Shown: positions 4,053-44,183 of the stretch, piece after piece
How positions within the stretch are numbered: position 1 is the stretch's first letter
Layout: each line of letters starts with the position of its first letter
Sequence record: PQ595991.1
From: Escherichia phage Psq-1
Strand: one strand, 5' to 3'
DNA: 44,183 nt
Position numbers and translations under genes: made by a program
The notes under the pieces: generated by a model
The model's database searches: none
The model's input: the letters and a program-made list of their open reading frames with translations, nothing else
What the model was told of the DNA's origin: nothing

Positions 4053-4081
4053 TTGGTGGGCTTTTTTGTGCCTGTTATAAT
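4053..4081 (+). promoter_or_regulatory. candidate sigma70 promoter with extended -10 (TGtTATAAT)
   Basis: TATAAT at 4076-4081 preceded by TGT; weak -35 TTGGTG at 4053-4058 with 17-bp spacer; upstream of the packaging genes. Confidence 0.35.
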
Positions 4082-9029: not shown

Positions 9030-9141
9030 CCCGTCCGCAGACCCCGACGAGGATTTGATGATTGACGTGAAAAATATGGAATGCGGGGCGAAGCTAAGGG
9101 CGCAGGTGCTGGAGTTGCAGCAAATAATTAAGGGGCCGTAA
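8911..9141 (+). CDS. o-spanin (Rz1-like outer-membrane lipoprotein)
   Basis: ATG 8911 preceded by AAGAGG; signal peptide MLRALTALIVVLMLSAC with lipobox LSAC; Pro-rich mature part with extra Cys; overlaps and extends past the i-spanin frame. Confidence 0.55.
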   Translation: MLRALTALIVVLMLSACGSSNAPLMPLTESALRPPCKFDSPSADPDEDLMIDVKNMECGAKLRAQVLELQQIIKGP

Positions 9142-9153
9142 TGGCCCCTTTTT
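9131..9153. terminator. bidirectional rho-independent terminator between convergent genes
   Basis: AGGGGCC-GTAAT-GGCCCCT hairpin with TTTTT on the plus side and A-run on the other. Confidence 0.6.
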
Positions 9154-9155
9154 CG

Positions 9156-9920
9156 TTAGCGAGGAATGCCGCAAATCTCGTTGAGTGTTTTCACGTCCAG
9201 CGCCACTGCCGTGGATTTGGGCTTGTCCGTGTATGGGATGAATTGCTCGACTTCAGGCCATGCCTTAATCAGCTTCTTGTCTGTATTGTGCAGGTCCAGT
9301 ACACCGGTAACGGTGAGTTTGAACGCATCATACTTCGCGCGCAACTCGCGACGGGCTTTGTCGTTGCGGTCCAGGCGTTTGCAGAAATAATGATCTGCCG
9401 GGTAGTCTACGCGACCGCGAGGAAGATATATCGGCAACGCTTTCCCGTCCTCGTCCACTTCGCACACTGACGCTAACATAATTTCCTCATACCCAGGTAC
9501 GATATCACCGAGATCGGGCGAGAGATTATTCATATATTTCTCTTCCCAGTACCCGCGATGTATGCGGTGTTGGCGACCGTCGCCGCTCAATGACAAGGTG
9601 CGAACATTGCCGCCTGCGTTGATTTCAAAGGTGGCGTTATAGACGCTGCCGATACCCTTCGGGCGGTCGGAGTTATAACTATACGTCGCCTTGTTGGTGT
9701 ATACGCTGACGCCGTACATCTGCGACTGGTCATCGCGGATTAACAGGATATGCTCGCGTAGCGCGGCGAATGTGCGAATGCCGTCCGGCATACAGTCCAG
9801 CGTGATTGCGTACGCCAGGTCGCGAGAGTCCATCATGATTTGTTTGGCTTCGGTTGCGATTTCGTGGTCGCGCAGGATGTTAGCTAGGATCTGATTTTTA
9901 ATGTCTTTTGTCAGTCTCAT
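9156..9920 (-). CDS. hypothetical protein encoded antisense to the head module (254 aa)
   Basis: Start set at internal ATG 9920 with GAGGA 8 nt upstream; own upstream region with ATTGGTTGCA boxes and own terminator; no motif recognised. Confidence 0.5.
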   Translation of the reverse strand: MRLTKDIKNQILANILRDHEIATEAKQIMMDSRDLAYAITLDCMPDGIRTFAALREHILLIRDDQSQMYGVSVYTNKATYSYNSDRPKGIGSVYNATFEINAGGNVRTLSLSGDGRQHRIHRGYWEEKYMNNLSPDLGDIVPGYEEIMLASVCEVDEDGKALPIYLPRGRVDYPADHYFCKRLDRNDKARRELRAKYDAFKLTVTGVLDLHNTDKKLIKAWPEVEQFIPYTDKPKSTAVALDVKTLNEICGIPR

Positions 9921-12030: not shown

Positions 12031-12531
12031 ATGTATGGCGACCCGCAAACATTTGTCGATTATGCCGCGGCGCGAGGCGTTGAAGTCACGCTGAGCGATG
12101 CAACGCGACACCTTACCGTAGTTAATGACTTCCTTAACGGCATCAACTGGATCGGAGAACCCGCAGACCAGACCGGAATCGACGCATGGCCCCGCATAAA
12201 TTACCCATCGGACGGTAAGCCGGTGCGCGACACGCTCACTGAAGTTGTGGCAGTAGTGCCTGCAGGGCAGATCGTAGATTTTGCATCAATCCCCATTGCC
12301 GTCGAGCAAGCCGTTTACAGGTTGGCGATGTTGGTGGCGGACGAGGTCGATATTTCTCCTGTTGGCAGTGGTAAGGAGACTATCCGCGAAACTGTTGGCC
12401 CGATCACGATGGAATATGACCCTGCGACGATTGGTAGCGGTGTCTCGTTCCCGTGGTGGGATGGCTTGCTGGGCCACTGGATTGACTCCAACGGCAACGC
12501 AGCGGGTAATTTTGACGTATTCCGGGGGTGA
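12031..12531 (+). CDS. head-tail adaptor or head completion protein (putative)
   Basis: ATG 12031 preceded by AGGAGTG; position after the capsid gene. Product by synteny only. Confidence 0.4.
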   Translation: MYGDPQTFVDYAAARGVEVTLSDATRHLTVVNDFLNGINWIGEPADQTGIDAWPRINYPSDGKPVRDTLTEVVAVVPAGQIVDFASIPIAVEQAVYRLAMLVADEVDISPVGSGKETIRETVGPITMEYDPATIGSGVSFPWWDGLLGHWIDSNGNAAGNFDVFRG

Positions 12532-14823: not shown

Positions 14824-14846
14824 GGGGCCAGTACGGCCCCTTTTTT
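14824..14846 (+). terminator. rho-independent terminator
   Basis: GGGGCC-AGTA-CGGCCCC hairpin then TTTTTT. Confidence 0.6.
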
Positions 14847-14862
14847 ATTGGAGAATACTACA

Positions 14863-15540: not shown

Positions 15541-15870
15541 GGAGCGGGACAGGCGGGACGTCCCGTTTTGTCACGCACCTCTAAAACTGCATATTTACTC
15601 ACCACAATTGCATAAACTAAAAGCGGGACAGGCGGGACGTCCCGTTTTGTCCCACCCCCAAAATGTGAATGTCTATTCAGTTTTAGTGCATAAAGTAAGC
15701 GGGACAAAAAGCGGGACAAACCAGGGGCGGGACAAAGTGGGACAGCACCCCCGTCCCCGTCAGTGCTGCCGCGGGTTTTAGCCGATCGGGACAGGCGGGA
15801 CAAACCCCAGTCTTTCAGACTAGACGGGGGTCAGTTGGCCCCCTCGTCTGAGACTGAATAAGGTTTGTTT
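15541..15870. repeat. iteron-like repeat element, copy A
   Basis: About 12 GCGGGACA/GGGACA boxes, two 30-bp direct repeats (15543-15572, 15622-15651) each holding the palindrome CGGGACGTCCCG, TGCATAAA boxes, and a GC-rich inverted repeat (15808-15856). Segment 15687-15861 recurs at 43050-43222. Confidence 0.6.
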
Positions 15871-24788: not shown

Positions 24789-24810
24789 GGGGCCATCCGG
24801 CCCCTTTTTT
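24789..24810. terminator. bidirectional rho-independent terminator
   Basis: GGGGCC-ATCC-GGCCCC hairpin with TTTTTT downstream on plus and an A-run on the other side, between convergent genes. Confidence 0.6.
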
Positions 24811-25774
24811 AATAGATGTTAGGAATTACGAGTAACGGGGTGGGTACTGCAATATTTTTACCCGGCATTTGGAATTGCTGCCGTGAATAGTTGCCGATTA
24901 CCCGGTTTTTGGCAATGCGCACATTACCGCCTGCCATTCGAATCCCGTTCATTCGAACGTGATTGTAGCCGCCGTTGTTCTCAATGAGCGCGCCGGTATA
25001 CGAAAGCTGGACCAGGCTATTGCCTATGTACTGATCGCCGCCGCCGATATAGATAAGGCGGTCATAAACAAATGGCTTATTCACTGTTGAGAACGTGACC
25101 TGACCCTGGTTGTTTGTCATGGTTATGCCGTTTCCAGGGGTGGGTGGCGTATTGTTGAATATAACCAGGTCCATTTCAACGGCAGCGCCTACGTCGTCAA
25201 TCCCACCATAGGACGCATTACGGACGATAATACTTCCGCCATCGAAGCCGACCGACACGTTTCCGTCGTCCCAGCGCGCGAATGGGACACCACCTACAGG
25301 TAACGGCATACTTCCGTTCACCCACACGCGCTGCGCATATTGGCAGGTCATTAGCCTGGATACATTTGATATGGCGGTGAAGTCCGTCGAGTTCGCCACC
25401 AGTAACCCTGCGTTGCGCGAACCCACCGGCAACACTTCCATGATCACCCCGCCCCATGTTGGAAGCCCGCTATATGCGCCATATGCGTCTTCACCTCGCA
25501 AGGTGATTCCGCCATCCCCGTTACGTTGTACTGAGGTGACGTAGAAAGGGTCGGGCAAGACCAGTGTCTGGTCGAATACTTCTATAACTTCAACGGGGCT
25601 TGTGAGCGCGACGACCAGATCTGACCCTGGCGTTAGCTGAGTGTTAATAGTAAGCGTCTTATCAGACTGGCAGCGCTGATAGAATGAGGTACAGAATGAC
25701 GGAGCGCGAAGTCCGGCTGTTATCTCCATCACCGGCCTTCCGTCGTTGTAGTCTATAAGTATTCCAGCGCCCAT
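24809..25774 (-). CDS. hypothetical Gly/Asn-rich protein, possible receptor-binding protein (321 aa)
   Basis: ATG 25774 with GGGAG upstream, overlapping the stop of the lipoprotein gene; beta-rich composition (GGGDQYIGNS, NNGGYNH); antisense between J and the tail fibre. Product assignment is by analogy only. Confidence 0.4.
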   Translation of the reverse strand: MGAGILIDYNDGRPVMEITAGLRAPSFCTSFYQRCQSDKTLTINTQLTPGSDLVVALTSPVEVIEVFDQTLVLPDPFYVTSVQRNGDGGITLRGEDAYGAYSGLPTWGGVIMEVLPVGSRNAGLLVANSTDFTAISNVSRLMTCQYAQRVWVNGSMPLPVGGVPFARWDDGNVSVGFDGGSIIVRNASYGGIDDVGAAVEMDLVIFNNTPPTPGNGITMTNNQGQVTFSTVNKPFVYDRLIYIGGGDQYIGNSLVQLSYTGALIENNGGYNHVRMNGIRMAGGNVRIAKNRVIGNYSRQQFQMPGKNIAVPTPLLVIPNIY

Positions 25775-26078: not shown

Positions 26079-27719
26079 ATGGCAGCGGGTACACTATCCG
26101 TAACGAATAACAGCAAGGCGGTTGTCGGGGTAGGCACGACGTTTACCACGTTTACCGCTGGCGACTTCTTAACTCTGGTGGTGGGGCAAGTGCCTTACAC
26201 TGTTGCTATCGCGTCCGTCGAAAGCGACACCGCGATTACGCTTGTGCTTCCGTTCGACGGCCCCACGGCAACCGGCCTCGCGTGGGATGGCGTTAAGCGC
26301 GATACCATGTCGCTGGCAACGATGGGCGTAACAGTACAGGCACAGAAAGCGTTGCGCTTGATGATCGCTGACGAAAACAACTGGCGTGCAATCTTCGGAG
26401 ACGAAGAAGAAGTCACGGTAACGCTGCCGAACGGGCAAGTTATGCAAGGTATGGCATGGGGCTACCTGTCACAATTGATGAGGCAGATCGACCCCGTTGA
26501 AATGCGCAACCTGCAACAACAAGCCGCGGCATCTGAAGCAGCAGCGCAAGGATTTCGCAATGAGGCCGAAGGCTTCAAGACTGAGACGGCGGGGATCCGC
26601 GACGCCACCAACCAGATTAAGGCGGATACGCAGGCTATCCGCGACGCCACCAACCAGATTAAGGCGGATACGCAGGCTATCCACGACGCCACCAATACCA
26701 TCAAGACGCAGACGGCCCAGATTAAGACTGACACCGGCGTTATTCGCGATGAGGCCAATGCCGCGAAGGCTGAAGCGCAATCCGCCCGAGATGCCGCGCT
26801 GGGATATCGGAACGAGGCCGAACAATTCAAGAATGAGATTGACCCGTCTAACTTTCTGGCAAAGGGTGGCAACCTGGCTGGGTTAACTGACTTGTCCGAG
26901 TCGCGGGATAACTTGGGTTTAGGAGCGTTGGCGACTAAAGATTCGGCGGCGCTAAACTCCACAGATACGACCGGTATTCTGCCCTTAGATAAGGGCGGTT
27001 TAGGCGCTGGTACCATCCCTGGCGCACGGGAGACGATGCATATTTATGGTCATGACGCTACGTTCGGGACCATAAATAATATCCTCACATACTTCAACAA
27101 TATTGCGGGTAACGGCGGACTCTTCTCGTTTCGAGATGGTGCCGTTGACGCCACTAACACCTACAAATTCGGCTCAGCAATACTGTTTCGCTCAGCCGAC
27201 ACCTACGGACTGTTAAGTGTTGACCACAACAACGGAAACGTTAGAGCATCCGGTGGTGTAGTTTCTGGTGGGATCGCGGCCACAGCATACATCAACAACC
27301 TGTGGGGTACGCGTAACACCACCGTAGACGGTAACGGGTTTATTAAAACCGCGTCGCCCATCGTCAAGATCTTCAGTGACGGTGCCGCGGAGACTAACGA
27401 CGAGGCCGAAGGCGTTACGGTGACTCGCATATCTGCGGGGGTGTATGTTGTGGAGGGGTGTCTAGGCCTCAACTCAGACCCATCCTGGGGCGGGCCTGAC
27501 GGCGGGATTGAGATTCCGACGGACGTGAACAAGCAGCCTCGTTTATGGGTTGATTATAAAGTGCGCGCTGACGGCTCTGTGGAGGTACGCACATACCACC
27601 GAACACACCCACACGCTCCAGCATTCGCAAGAAATGAGATAGAAGGTGTGGCGGAAGGGGACCCGGTTGATATACCGCGTGGCACGTTCATATCTGTTCG
27701 GGTTAATATGCCTGAGTAA
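26079..27719 (+). CDS. tail fibre protein (546 aa)
   Basis: ATG 26079 with GAGGA upstream; coiled-coil shaft with 14-aa repeats (IRDATNQIKADTQA), Gly-rich C-terminal domain. Confidence 0.7.
   Translation: MAAGTLSVTNNSKAVVGVGTTFTTFTAGDFLTLVVGQVPYTVAIASVESDTAITLVLPFDGPTATGLAWDGVKRDTMSLATMGVTVQAQKALRLMIADENNWRAIFGDEEEVTVTLPNGQVMQGMAWGYLSQLMRQIDPVEMRNLQQQAAASEAAAQGFRNEAEGFKTETAGIRDATNQIKADTQAIRDATNQIKADTQAIHDATNTIKTQTAQIKTDTGVIRDEANAAKAEAQSARDAALGYRNEAEQFKNEIDPSNFLAKGGNLAGLTDLSESRDNLGLGALATKDSAALNSTDTTGILPLDKGGLGAGTIPGARETMHIYGHDATFGTINNILTYFNNIAGNGGLFSFRDGAVDATNTYKFGSAILFRSADTYGLLSVDHNNGNVRASGGVVSGGIAATAYINNLWGTRNTTVDGNGFIKTASPIVKIFSDGAAETNDEAEGVTVTRISAGVYVVEGCLGLNSDPSWGGPDGGIEIPTDVNKQPRLWVDYKVRADGSVEVRTYHRTHPHAPAFARNEIEGVAEGDPVDIPRGTFISVRVNMPE
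26595..26678 (+). repeat. perfect 42-bp tandem duplication inside the tail fibre gene
   Basis: ATCCGCGACGCCACCAACCAGATTAAGGCGGATACGCAGGCT twice (26595-26636, 26637-26678), followed by a degenerate third unit. Confidence 0.85.
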
Positions 27720-27731
27720 AGCATAATGCGA

Positions 27732-27753
27732 AGGGGCCATTCGGCCCCTTTTT
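27732..27753. terminator. bidirectional rho-independent terminator
   Basis: AGGGGCC-ATTC-GGCCCCT hairpin followed by TTTTT, between convergent genes. Confidence 0.6.
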
Positions 27754-28327
27754 AATTTGAGTTTTCCCAGTCCATTTTGCGCCGCACAAGCGGGCTTTCG
27801 TAGTATTCCTTACCTTCCACTTCCACTAAATGCCAGTCATTCACAATCACGTATGGCTCTGCTATATCCTCAATCACGCCGTGCGCGCTATGCTGCCCGA
27901 ACGACACGCCAACCAGAATAACTCCGGCAACCCGACGGGAAAGATACTCGCGGGCACAACGGGCCTCAACCAGACCGCGACGGATGCCGCTGGTGGCTTT
28001 GACCTCATATGTCCAGACGGCATCAATCATGTGCTCTTTGTAGTCGGGACCGGATTTTACCTTGCGCTTGCCGACCATGATAATATCGCCGCGGTCAATG
28101 GTATTGGCGCTAAACAGGCCGGTACGCATGAGCAAGCCTTGAGGGATACAACTGCGCCCGCCTGCTTGCCCTTCCAGGTACATGCCCGCAAACATCTCGC
28201 CCAGCACACCGACCAGTCGGCTTTGCTTGCACGCGTCAGACTTTAAGCGCCATTGGTCAAACTCGATGCTTGCTATCATTGCCGCCAGGTGGAATTGTTT
28301 ACCAGATATTTCATATTCGCCGTACAT
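27752..28327 (-). CDS. hypothetical protein with PD-(D/E)XK-like signature (191 aa)
   Basis: RGDIIMVGKRK...GPDYKEHMIDAVWTYEVK resembles the D...(D/E)xK core seen in the VRR-NUC protein of this genome (PDLIIIINGKIVFVEVK). Weak. Confidence 0.35.
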   Translation of the reverse strand: MYGEYEISGKQFHLAAMIASIEFDQWRLKSDACKQSRLVGVLGEMFAGMYLEGQAGGRSCIPQGLLMRTGLFSANTIDRGDIIMVGKRKVKSGPDYKEHMIDAVWTYEVKATSGIRRGLVEARCAREYLSRRVAGVILVGVSFGQHSAHGVIEDIAEPYVIVNDWHLVEVEGKEYYESPLVRRKMDWENSN

Positions 28328-39012: not shown

Positions 39013-39264
39013 TTATTTTGTCTCCCAGCGGTCAATTGTTTTTGCTTCGGATGCAACGGCGAAACGAACATATTCCAGATTTGAATCAGCCCAAATATAA
39101 AAGTCGGGATTAGTAAAGGTGGCGCGCTTAATTTGCGCGGGTGTGTTGCGGCGTTTATCAATTACGGCAACGCGCGATTGAAAGCTGCCGATGCGTTCGA
39201 ATAGCCAATAGTACGGGCGCTGGTCGCGGGAATCCACCGCCTCGATTAGCGTGAAGCGTGCCAT
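39013..39264 (-). CDS. hypothetical protein (83 aa)
   Basis: Track ORF with GAGGA-type RBS. Confidence 0.4.
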   Translation of the reverse strand: MARFTLIEAVDSRDQRPYYWLFERIGSFQSRVAVIDKRRNTPAQIKRATFTNPDFYIWADSNLEYVRFAVASEAKTIDRWETK

Positions 39265-39277
39265 TGTCTCGTCCTCT

Positions 39278-39304
39278 AAAAATAGGCCCGCAGATTAGCG
39301 GGCC
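39278..39304 (-). terminator. rho-independent terminator or attenuator on the minus strand
   Basis: Stem GGCCCGC / GCGGGCC with 6-nt loop, followed on the minus strand by TATTTTTA. Confidence 0.4.
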
Positions 39305-39312
39305 GGATAATA

Positions 39313-39822
39313 TTAGTCTTCCAGTTCGAAATAGGTTTCGACGATTTCTTTCAGATCTTTGTGGAAGTCTTCGACGTCGTCATCTTCCAGTTTAGCGATT
39401 GATTTGATCTCGAACGATTCCAGCAGGTCGTCAAATTCGTCGTTGGCGTCGTCGTCATCACCACCGGCGATAATCGCGGCATACTGTTTGATTTCGTCGC
39501 GCATCTCTGCCAGCGGATCGGCATCTTTCTTACCTTTGCCTTTCGCCGTGGCTTTTTTACCTTTCGCCGGTTTTTCGTCTTCGGCTTCATCGTCGTCATC
39601 TTCTACGACTTCTTTTTTGGCCTTACCTTTCGCCGGTGCTTTTTTGGTTTTCGCCGGTGCTTCGTCTTCAGCGTCGTCATCTTCTACGACTTCTTTTTTC
39701 GCCTTAGACGGCTTCTTGTCTTCCTGCGTACCAACGGCAGCGCCAACGGTTTCATAATGTTTAGCGATTGTTTCCAGTGCTACTACGCCGCGAGTAATCA
39801 GGTTTACGATTTGTTCAAACAT
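39313..39822 (-). CDS. highly charged tandem-repeat protein (169 aa)
   Basis: ATG 39822 with GGAGA upstream; two 26-27-aa repeats KKEVVEDDD-EDE-PAK-KKA-AKGK-KK plus acidic D/E runs; nucleotide-level tandem repeat at about 39540-39720. Confidence 0.5.
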   Translation of the reverse strand: MFEQIVNLITRGVVALETIAKHYETVGAAVGTQEDKKPSKAKKEVVEDDDAEDEAPAKTKKAPAKGKAKKEVVEDDDDEAEDEKPAKGKKATAKGKGKKDADPLAEMRDEIKQYAAIIAGGDDDDANDEFDDLLESFEIKSIAKLEDDDVEDFHKDLKEIVETYFELED

Positions 39823-40018
39823 GGTATATCTCCGATTGGTTAAGTTTAGGTGTCGACCATTAACTTCGTCGGTGGCCTTAACATATTGCCAGGTTACGCG
39901 TTCTCCCGTTCGGGTAGTGGACCTGGTTATATAATCACGGTTGGGAATCCTGACACTTCGATCCGGCCCCTGCGTTGCCCCTCTCCAGTTTGCGTCCTGC
40001 ATCCTGTCGACGAGGTGA

Positions 40019-40047
40019 ATATTAGATTGGTTGCATGAGGGAGTCAA
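40019..40047 (-). promoter_or_regulatory. sigma70-like promoter for the minus-strand early/replication operon
   Basis: Minus strand reads TTGACT (-35), 17-bp spacer containing TGCAACCAA, TAATAT (-10). Confidence 0.4.
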
Positions 40048-40059
40048 CAACTAATTTCA

Positions 40060-40115: not shown

Positions 40116-40163
40116 GGGGGTATTATTACACGCGTGCGCGCCCGTTTCAATATTCCAAAGGAG

Positions 40164-40223: not shown

Positions 40224-40553
40224 ATGAATATCGACGACGCAATCGAAATGTTAACTAAGACTGTTTGCAGTGAGACTAGCCGGTCTTGGGCATATACAGA
40301 TGCCGTTGGGGCGGTGCTATTTGAAATCGAACGTCTGCGACTTACCGAAAAAGAATTGCGCGCGAAGCTGGAATTACTCAACGGTACGGCAGCCAGCAAG
40401 CTGCAAAAGCACAATGAAGAAATGGAAGAATACAAAAAACAGGTTATCCGTTTGCGCGATGAGGGGAAGTCATGGGCGATGATCGCCGAGTTGACAGGAA
40501 TTAATCAGAGCACCGTGCGCTCCTGGGTACGCAATAACAAAACTTCGAAATAA
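40224..40553 (+). CDS. HTH domain protein, putative regulator (109 aa)
   Basis: C-terminal HTH GKSWAMIAELTGINQSTVRSWVRNNK; coiled-coil middle; first gene of the plus-strand early unit. Confidence 0.5.
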   Translation: MNIDDAIEMLTKTVCSETSRSWAYTDAVGAVLFEIERLRLTEKELRAKLELLNGTAASKLQKHNEEMEEYKKQVIRLRDEGKSWAMIAELTGINQSTVRSWVRNNKTSK

Positions 40554-40723
40554 GGCAACGGCAATGAGCTTAATTAAATTCGCTGTAACAAGACCCTCAT
40601 GGGCGATGATCGCCGAGTTGACAGGAATTAATCAGAGCACCGTGCGCTCCTGGGTACGCAATAACAAAACTTCGAAATAAGGCAACGGCAATGAGCTTAA
40701 TTAAATTCGCTGTAACAAGACCC
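40470..40723. repeat. exact 127-bp tandem duplication (40470-40596 and 40597-40723)
   Basis: Both copies read identically by eye; they span the last 28 codons of the HTH gene and the first 11 codons of the primase gene. Confidence 0.9.
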
Positions 40724-42955
40724 GCTAAAAAAGGCGAAAAAGCCAGGGCGGAAAACTTCCAGATGACAACTGATGAATTTTTCGAATTTATCAATGACGC
40801 GAAAGAAATCTCATCGGTGCACATCAACAAGACCGAGGATAAAGCTGAGTATGCGCGCCGCAAGCGCAAGGCCGATGGCATCGTGGCATATACCAGTGAC
40901 GGCCTACGCCGTAAGACCAGCGCGGTGGACCGCTCGATCCTGTTCTTTGATATTGACCGCACCGACACTCGCACCTTGCGCCGCTGCCGTAAGGCGTTCA
41001 TTGACGCGGGTCTGGAACACGTATTCCACACAACCACCGGCGATCGCCACCCGCTGAAAGGCGGCACGCGTTGCGCCCGTTTCCTTGTGCTCACAGATAA
41101 ACCAGTACCGGCGGAAGACCTGGGCCGCGTCCAGTACGCGCTGTTAGACCAACTTGGTCTGTCAGATGTGGACTTCGACGATTGTACGAAGGACACAAAC
41201 CGTCTTATGTACCTGCCACACCAGCAGTCTGTCATTAAGTGCCACCACGGCAAACGTGCCAATGTGCGGCGTCTGCTACGCCTGGCGGATAAGCTGGGAG
41301 TGGAGAAAGAGGAAGTACGCCGCGAGCTTACCCAGGGCGACGACGCAGTGGCGGACGGGATTCTGGACTGGTGCTTCCAGGCAGGATTCGAGGAGTTATC
41401 TTCCGGTCGCGGTTATGAAGTTCCGTGCCCGAACGAACATCTGCACAGCGGCGAAGGGTCGACGGCTATCATGGTCAAGGATGGCGAGATCCGTTTCAAG
41501 TGTATGCACACCGGCAACGAGTGTTGCTCGGAGCTAAATAGACACCAGCACCTTGCGCTACGTCTCATCGGGATACCGGACCACCTGAACGTCGAGCCGC
41601 ACAACATGTCACGTAAGCAAATCGCCGCCATCCTGCCAGGTCTGGACGACGAGGAAGTCGAATCCTTATATGACCACATTGTTGATGCGGTTGGCGACGG
41701 CGAAGAATATGGCGTGTGCACCGATGCGGATCTTGATAACGAGCCGGTTGCGCTGTTCAGTAAGCACGACCCGATCATCGAGGGGTTGATTAACTTTAAA
41801 TCGACCTGGTACATGGCGGGTGAGTCGAATATCGGTAAGTCTTTCTATGTGCTGGGGCAGATGGGCGCGGTTGCCGCCGGTATTCCGTTTGGCGGTGCGA
41901 AGGTCGTCCAGTCGCATTGCTTCTATTTCGATGCGGAAGGCGGCGAAGCCTCCAACCAGCGCAAAGAAGCATTGCAGATTAAATATGAGCACGACCTGGA
42001 CAAGCTGCACATTATAGACCTGCAGTCACGCGGCTGGGATATCACCAGCAAGTCCGGTTTGCGCGAAGTTATCAGCTTTATCAACCGCACCGCTAACGGC
42101 GAACCGGTTGGCCTGGTGGCGTTCGACTCACTTAACCAGACTGTTGCGCTGCGGTCCGCCGATGCTAAACCGTTTGACGAGAACAACGCCAGCGATATGG
42201 GAGAAGTGGTCAAAGCGCTGAAAGCCATTGCGGAAAATACAGGTGGCAGTGCGGGCGTCATCCACCACCCGGCGAAAGGTGCAAACGGCAGCAGAACCCC
42301 ACGCGGATCCGGCGCACTGCATGGTGCTGTCGATTCAGCTTTCTTCCTGGAACAGCCGGACGACAACCAGCCAGGACAACTCAACCTGTATCACGAAAAA
42401 TCACGTAATGGCATCAAGCAAGCGCCGCGTGGCTTCGTCCTGCTCAAGTGCAAGGTGGAGGTGGATCTCCGCAAGTCAGAAGCGTTCGCGTCGCACCAGT
42501 CCACCAGCACCGGGCCGGACTTCGGAGACGTCGTTGCCGGTTGGGACGTCAAACCAATTGCGTCCACCCCGCGCGACGAGACTCTGTACCTCGTACCAGT
42601 AGCCCTGGCACCGTTCGCTATAGAACAGGCAAAGGCCGCTGGCAAAGCCGCAGTTAAGGAAGAAAACGCCGCCGGTCCGCGCAACGAAAAAGAGAAAGTG
42701 CTTTATGCGGCCCTGGAAAAACTGATGGAAGATAACCCTAACCATACTGGATTCAGTAAATCGGCAATTGTCCGCCAGGCGGGACTCGCGAAGGGTGGTA
42801 CTTCGACGAAAGCAATCGACGATATGGTGGAGCGTGGCGTGATTGGTTTTTATACAGATCCGCACACCGGGGCCATATATGGGTCGTCGAATTTAGTCAT
42901 CAAATCGGATATTCCCATAACGCTTTCGGCGACCGACGACGACCTGAAGGATTAA
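40691..42955 (+). CDS. DNA primase/helicase-type replication protein (754 aa)
   Basis: Zn-binding-like HLHSGEGS...FKCMHTGNECC; P-loop GESNIGKS and Walker B-like LVAFDSLNQ in the C-terminal half. Confidence 0.6.
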   Translation: MSLIKFAVTRPAKKGEKARAENFQMTTDEFFEFINDAKEISSVHINKTEDKAEYARRKRKADGIVAYTSDGLRRKTSAVDRSILFFDIDRTDTRTLRRCRKAFIDAGLEHVFHTTTGDRHPLKGGTRCARFLVLTDKPVPAEDLGRVQYALLDQLGLSDVDFDDCTKDTNRLMYLPHQQSVIKCHHGKRANVRRLLRLADKLGVEKEEVRRELTQGDDAVADGILDWCFQAGFEELSSGRGYEVPCPNEHLHSGEGSTAIMVKDGEIRFKCMHTGNECCSELNRHQHLALRLIGIPDHLNVEPHNMSRKQIAAILPGLDDEEVESLYDHIVDAVGDGEEYGVCTDADLDNEPVALFSKHDPIIEGLINFKSTWYMAGESNIGKSFYVLGQMGAVAAGIPFGGAKVVQSHCFYFDAEGGEASNQRKEALQIKYEHDLDKLHIIDLQSRGWDITSKSGLREVISFINRTANGEPVGLVAFDSLNQTVALRSADAKPFDENNASDMGEVVKALKAIAENTGGSAGVIHHPAKGANGSRTPRGSGALHGAVDSAFFLEQPDDNQPGQLNLYHEKSRNGIKQAPRGFVLLKCKVEVDLRKSEAFASHQSTSTGPDFGDVVAGWDVKPIASTPRDETLYLVPVALAPFAIEQAKAAGKAAVKEENAAGPRNEKEKVLYAALEKLMEDNPNHTGFSKSAIVRQAGLAKGGTSTKAIDDMVERGVIGFYTDPHTGAIYGSSNLVIKSDIPITLSATDDDLKD

Positions 42956-43049
42956 ATTTTGCGCGCATTGGTTGCCATTTTGAGTGTTTTTAGCTGGTCG
43001 CATTGGTTGCCGTGTAGTGTAAAAATATTGAATAGTTATGCAATAAAAC

Positions 43050-43222
43050 TGCATAAAGTAAGCGGGACAAAAAGCGGGACAGACCAGGGGCGGGACAAAG
43101 CGGGACAGCACCCCCGTCCCGCCCCGGATGACGCGGCCTGGCGAGGAGCGGGACAGGCGGGACAACTACCAGTCTTTCAGACTAGACGGGGGTCAACGGC
43201 CCCCCTCGTCTGAGACTGCATA
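43050..43222. repeat. iteron-like repeat element, copy B
   Basis: Six GCGGGACA boxes, a TGCATAAA box, inverted GTCCCGC...GCGGGAC, and the same GC-rich inverted repeat as copy A (43170-43217). AT-rich stretch at 43021-43050. Confidence 0.6.
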
Positions 43223-43370
43223 AAATCCGGGATTGCAAAATACACGGCAGCACATTGTAAATTGCGGTCGTCGCGGAACTAGGCAACCAATGCGGGATGC
43301 AGAACGTGGTGTGAAAAATGCAGTCACAGCAGATAGCGATCAACTTTTTCATACGCGTGATTAATATTGG

Positions 43371-43917: not shown

Positions 43918-44183
43918 ATGCGCCGTAGACGAGCCAAACAGCTTTCGTGGCATATTCCACTGCATTGCATACGAATATGGGCTGAGAATGCGACTGAGGG
44001 CGAATCTGTATTCTGGTGCTATCGCGACGACGTAAAGCCGTTGACGCAGACTCGCTACTTGCACCAGTTCGCAGCACAACACGATTTCAGGGTGCGGACT
44101 TCCTTGCAACAAATGGGGATCCGAATTACATTACGCCGGAAGCCCGCAGTCGAGCGGGTAGGCAAACACTGGAGACTGAGCAA
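43918..44183 (+). CDS. hypothetical early protein, open at window end
   Basis: ATG 43918 preceded by AAGAGG; no stop before the window end. Confidence 0.4.
   Translation, partial: MRRRRAKQLSWHIPLHCIRIWAENATEGESVFWCYRDDVKPLTQTRYLHQFAAQHDFRVRTSLQQMGIRITLRRKPAVERVGKHWRLS

Follow-up and report, generated by a model that had tools for sequence, protein, structure and literature searches.

The stretch of DNA analysed here (the window, 44,183 nt) is a complete genome of a Dhillonvirus, an HK578/EP23/SO-1-like siphophage of E. coli and Shigella. It carries one exact tandem repeat of 127 bp, which is very probably an untrimmed k=127 assembly overlap that became internal when a circular contig was re-opened, and hence an artefact of assembly and curation and not a piece of phage biology. 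The first-pass annotation had read the duplication as a probable assembly artefact, and this reading is now supported by the exact length of 127 nt, the rotation of the record, the single copy present in relatives, the absence of the repeat junction from sequence collections, and the headful packaging of the genus.

The repeat had been described as two identical, adjacent 127-bp copies, and TRF, a repeat finder and a direct comparison of strings agree with this description. The letters at 40470–40596 and 40597–40723 are identical at 127 of 127 positions and the copies abut directly. The TRF row for the repeat has a period of 127, 2.0 copies, 100% matches and a score of 508. The array occupies exactly 254 nt, or 2.000 copies, and neither of its borders can be extended by a single base. 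The elements of the repeat are as follows.

40470–40596, + strand: repeat copy 1, the putative 3'-terminal 127-mer of the original linear contig.
40597–40723, + strand: repeat copy 2, the putative 5'-terminal 127-mer of the original linear contig.
40590–40603, unstranded: novel junction …AAGACCC/TCATGGG…, the join presumably made by the re-opening of the contig.

With slashes marking the borders, the array reads …GGGGAAG/TCATGG…AAGACCC/GCTAAA…, and the letters at the 40596/40597 junction are …GTAACAAGACCC/TCATGGGCGATG…. Across the 44,183 nt of the window, the second-longest exact direct repeat measures 46 nt. The longest exact direct repeats of natural relatives range from 20 to 70 nt, and the tandem ones among them have in-frame periods. 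Judged against these two values, the 127-nt repeat lies far beyond chance.

The duplication falls across the junction of two genes that are transcribed in the same direction, and a short third reading frame appears between them.

40224–40553, + strand: intact and genuine gene of a 109-aa helix-turn-helix (HTH) protein, the homologue of EP23p45 (Pfam HTH_23/HTH_28/Sigma70_r4_2).
40691–42955, + strand: intact and genuine gene of the replicative primase/helicase, 754 aa, the homologue of EP23p46 (Pfam AAA_25).
40564–40680, + strand: spurious 38-aa 'fusion ORF', which arises solely through the duplication.

The translations of the open reading frames bear out this layout, which had been given in the first-pass annotation as an HTH gene, a primase gene and, at 40564–40680, a fusion of 11 primase residues with the C-terminus of the HTH protein. 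The 38-aa ORF consists of MSLIKFAVTRP (residues 1–11 of the primase) followed in frame by SWAMIAELTGINQSTVRSWVRNNKTSK (residues 83–109, the last 27, of the HTH protein). A search of an index of 153 billion genes found no gene on record for this fusion product, and Pfam returned only sub-threshold HTH fragments for it. The distance from the HTH stop codon to the primase start is 137 nt in the window, that is, 10 + 127.

The labels attached to the 109-aa protein (40224–40553) in GenBank relatives are 'transposase', 'resolvase', 'DNA recombination nuclease inhibitor gamma' and 'hypothetical'. Since Pfam supports just a C-terminal helix-turn-helix in this protein, the names that imply a function seem to be mis-annotations passed on from record to record.

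One repeat unit comprises the last 28 codons of the HTH gene with its stop codon, a spacer of 10 nt that holds the ribosome-binding region of the primase, and 11 codons from the start of the primase gene. It starts within one coding sequence and stops within the other, and its period is not divisible by 3. No promoter- or terminator-like sites were found on the + strand of the unit, and its folding was no better than that of shuffled controls (z = 0.28). In these properties the unit resembles an arbitrary break point and not a functional element. The search for Rfam families, which was extended over the whole window, found none.

A different origin of the same structure would be a genuine and very recent tandem duplication of 127 bp in the replication operon, caused by illegitimate recombination or replication slippage. 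Such a duplication would be viable, because the HTH and primase genes are both intact, with the 38-aa fusion in frame, and because a phage with headful packaging tolerates an extra 127 bp. It would also have consequences: a translated 38-aa peptide would carry the recognition-helix half of the HTH protein, the primase would gain a second ribosome-binding site, and the function of the HTH protein or the translational coupling of primase/helicase expression could be perturbed. We nevertheless consider this origin very unlikely. A real duplication could have any length, but this one equals the maximum k of SPAdes to the base and shows zero mismatches between its copies. The 38-aa product, as mentioned, is not on record. 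The comparison of the borders revealed 0 nt of shared sequence on either side, although the lack of microhomology is weak evidence when taken alone, as about 56% of random joins are expected to have none.

The copy number in other sequences was examined as well. For this, a 508-nt query centred on the repeat was compared with GenBank phage records. In each of the best 60 rows (60/60), the query aligned in two overlapping pieces that together covered only 377–381 nt of the record. A subject cover of this size equals the query minus 127 nt, and these records therefore hold a single copy. A second sample of 60 rows, spread across the ranking of all 146 matching phage records, gave the same result, with PQ843332, which carries a different artefact, as the sole exception; the single-copy statement for GenBank thus covers the inspected rows, namely the best 60 and the 60-row spread of the 146.

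The Logan/ENA contigs gave a concordant picture. Ten independent contigs encode an identical 109-aa HTH protein, and the primase gene always follows 10 nt later. Four contigs share an identical exonuclease, and three of them cover the repeat region while the fourth stops short. In all 13 contigs that cover the region (13/13), a gap of 10 nt separates the HTH stop codon from the gene of the 754-aa primase. The BLAST alignments of the window to these 13 contigs and to EP23 end at 40596 and resume at 40597, with an overlap of 127 nt in the subject. The 14 contigs that share the identical HTH or exonuclease protein belong to different strains with an identity of 89–97%. This weighs somewhat against the artefact reading, as the closest sequences differ from the window to this extent and the junction is thus judged through other strains.

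The novel junction itself was searched for in IMG/VR, in JGI metagenome contigs and in GTDB genomes. An exact 33-mer spanning it had 0 matches in these collections, and so did a degenerate 37-mer that tolerates the polymorphisms found among relatives. As a positive control, an analogous pattern for the normal junction between the unit and the primase gene matched nine IMG/VR contigs, which hold a single copy. A strain-specific 53-mer from the repeat unit also had 0 matches in all three collections, so that this search yielded no un-rotated contig carrying the 127-mer at each of its ends. The exact-protein look-ups of the primase and of the ORF at 1–555 found no identical protein on record. The comparison with related genomes that had been suggested earlier was hereby carried out, and the duplication, absent from the inspected GenBank rows, the 13 Logan/ENA contigs and the nine IMG/VR contigs alike, is unique to this sequence among those inspected. 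The absence of both the duplication and its junction from these sources argues against a genuine duplication in the replication operon.

The repeat also coincides with independent signs of the re-opening of a contig, which again speaks against a genuine duplication. Among GenBank phages, megablast gave 171 matches to the repeat region. Of these, Shigella phage EP23 ranks first with an identity of about 95%, and none of the 171 reaches 99%. In the whole-genome comparison, the window follows EP23 colinearly over its entire length, as a circularly permuted version of it: position 1 of EP23 corresponds to position 4076 of the window, position 44183 of the window to position 40150 of EP23, and position 1 of the window to position 40151 of EP23. 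The window opens with the following gene.

1–555, + strand: first CDS of the window, the homologue of EP23p50 and of AV129 gp52, whose start codon begins at base 1.

Position 40151 of EP23, which aligns with base 1 of the window, is the first base of the CDS EP23p50, and in AV129 the CDS gp52 is annotated with its start exactly at the base aligning with base 1. A 1,400-nt query joining the last 700 nt of the window to its first 700 nt is contiguous in at least 64 GenBank records. The comparison of the window ends revealed no residual overlap between them. The earlier claim that the window is rotated and circularly closed is therefore confirmed on each point: the ends join in relatives, base 1 is the start of a CDS, and no terminal overlap is left. 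The window is thus a closed circle that was deliberately re-opened at the ATG of a gene, because its first base is the first base of a CDS and the junction of its end with its start is seamless in relatives. One point counts against the artefact reading here: the start at the EP23p50 homologue is not the convention of the genus, since most relatives open near the terminase genes and the TH11 record alone begins no more than 16 nt away from this CDS.

Among the phage records that matched the HTH/primase region, two bear unexpected host names. MG065648.1 ('Campylobacter phage A144', 35,197 bp) and OQ221563.1 ('Acinetobacter phage NJ01') are 92–93% identical to this coliphage genus across this region. 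The hosts named in these records are doubtful, and the records are probably contaminated or mislabelled.

The length of the repeat had been noted earlier to match an assembler k of 127. This match is exact, and 127-bp overlaps left by SPAdes are documented in the literature: when a phage genome is circular or permuted, its SPAdes contig carries an artificial end overlap of 127 bp, an artefact for removal (PMC5923482), and in the announcement of a coliphage the 'terminal repeats of 127 bp' were removed and the genome was then re-opened to match a reference (PMC8104045). Genomes of Dhillonvirus members were 'assembled into circles', and the packaging mode that PhageTerm predicts for these phages is headful (pac) (PMC9022532, PMC13348001).

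The following course of events would account for the repeat. Since the phage is circularly permuted and packaged by the headful mode, as a Dhillonvirus, its reads would form a cycle in the de Bruijn graph. With k raised to 127, SPAdes would output this cycle as a linear contig that has the same 127 nt at its start and at its end. The original contig would run from 40597 of the window to 44183 and then from 1 to 40596, with a length of 44,056 + 127 = 44,183 nt. The start of the CDS at 1–555 lies 3,587 nt downstream of this putative contig start at 40597. The first 3,587 nt would then have been moved to the end, so that the contig opens at the ATG of the EP23p50 homologue, and the overlap copy would have been left undeleted. 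Rotation without trimming would set the terminal 127-mers head to tail and leave them as an internal tandem repeat at 40470–40723. In this account, we infer which assembler was used and in what order the steps were taken; the repeat with its exact length and its uniqueness, the rotation, the closure of the circle and the packaging mode of the genus are shown.

The same head-to-tail structure would result if a linear genome with a direct terminal repeat (DTR) at both ends were rotated in the record. A genuine 127-bp DTR of the T7-like kind, with fixed ends, would leave both flanking genes intact on the linear molecule. We regard this origin as extremely improbable. PhageTerm points to headful (pac) packaging and the assemblies are circular in the genus members (PMC9022532, PMC13348001), which is not the pattern of fixed ends; the supposed ends would fall within the coding sequences of two genes in one operon and not in a non-coding terminal region; and the length would once again equal an assembler constant. 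Moreover, the relatives with readable record starts open elsewhere, mostly, as noted above, near the terminase genes. A short DTR was rejected on the packaging mode of the genus and the coding location.

Another computational route would not involve the rotation of a whole circle: a graph loop may have been mis-resolved, or contigs or scaffolds may have been joined with the k=127 overlap kept. At this single site the resulting structure would be indistinguishable, and the record PQ843332.1, described below, shows that graph segments with untrimmed k-length overlaps have been concatenated in this genus. However, just one such duplication is present in the window, which closes perfectly at the start of a CDS, and we give this route hardly any credence. 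It is less parsimonious than the rotation of a single circle without trimming, which is preferred because this one step explains both the single duplication and the perfect closure.

With the artefact reading, the repeat is a matter of data quality only. The true genome is 44,056 bp long and has a single copy of the 127-bp unit, with 10 nt between the HTH stop codon and the primase ATG, as in relatives. The corrected length compares with 44,077 bp in EP23. The record can be put right by deleting one copy (e.g., 40597–40723), which brings it to 44,056 bp and returns the HTH–primase spacing to the 10 nt of relatives. The 38-aa fusion ORF is spurious and should stay unannotated. As an automatic flag of this kind of error, it is useful to look for exact tandem repeats of 55, 77, 99 or 127 nt inside phage or plasmid genomes that have been re-oriented.

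Two further families of repeated elements were observed in the window. A module of approximately 200 nt occurs twice, at 15666–15861 and 43029–43223, with a half-module at 15543–15658; the two copies are 27.4 kb apart and the identity is 78–88%. One of them occupies an intergenic gap that precedes the tape-measure gene, and the other lies a short way downstream of the gene for the primase/helicase. Within the module there are several GCGGGACA boxes and one TGCATAAAGTAAGCGGGACA motif, and its end is formed by a strong, conserved hairpin (−29.3 and −26.2 kcal/mol; z = −3.9 and −4.2). Both copies are kept in EP23 (12208–12382 and 39164–39337), with a 70-nt exact stretch in common. The module has no match in Rfam. 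It may possibly be a regulatory, promoter or origin element. The second family is a GGGCC-N-GGCCCC hairpin followed by a T-run, which is present in four copies (9133–9161, 14825–14853, 24789–24817 and 27733–27761). These look like ordinary intrinsic terminators at the boundaries of + strand modules.

The exceptional record among the relatives, PQ843332.1 (Escherichia phage P-GXEC-L2P5, same genus), is an 88,607-bp 'complete genome', twice the size typical of the genus (~44 kb). In its first 45 kb, TRF gave 46 rows with a period of 77, and 65 exact repeats are spaced by 77 nt. At least five further duplications of period 77 lie within 4.8 kb of its second half (51123–55950). The duplications fragment or pad genes, e.g., the primase gene, and their copies are 94–100% identical. 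One 77-nt duplication is located at the same HTH/primase junction, where the spacing of the genes is 87 nt (10 + 77). The value 77 is another default k of SPAdes. The record looks like a series of assembly-graph segments that were concatenated with untrimmed k=77 overlaps. Because the copies range from 94 to 100% in identity, it may have been built from two co-assembled variants. PQ843332.1 illustrates that such artefacts reach public databases, where they give rise to false ORFs, false 'repeats' and inflated genome sizes.

The window resembles PQ843332.1 in having an exact or near-exact tandem duplication whose period equals a SPAdes k and which is placed at an arbitrary site, the HTH/primase junction being one of those affected in both. 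The two differ in that PQ843332.1 is a doubled record with dozens of 77-nt duplications, whereas in the window there is just one duplication, of 127 nt, and the remainder is clean and colinear with EP23.

The direct tandem repeats that occur naturally in Dhillonvirus offer a second comparison, and two of them are present in the window.

39539–39706, within the minus-strand ORF 39313–40050: repeat in the gene of an acidic protein rich in Lys, Asp and Glu, an 81-nt (27-aa) in-frame repeat.
26577–26777: repeat of an apparent tail-fibre region, a 42-nt (14-aa) in-frame repeat in about four copies.

Both are direct tandem repeats of the same genome, as the 127-nt repeat is, but the likeness ends there. 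The periods of the natural repeats are multiples of 3 (42 and 81 nt; in relatives, the period in the acidic protein gene is 54, 78, 81, 87 or 90 nt), their copies are 61–98% identical, each lies within one ORF, and they occur in relatives with variation in length. None of this applies to the 127-nt repeat.

The terminal overlaps of SPAdes contigs, in contrast, share with the repeat a length of exactly 127 nt, 100% identity, circular closure and a genus with headful packaging. The difference is that the copies in the window are internal and stand head to tail, whereas SPAdes overlaps stand at the ends of the sequence.
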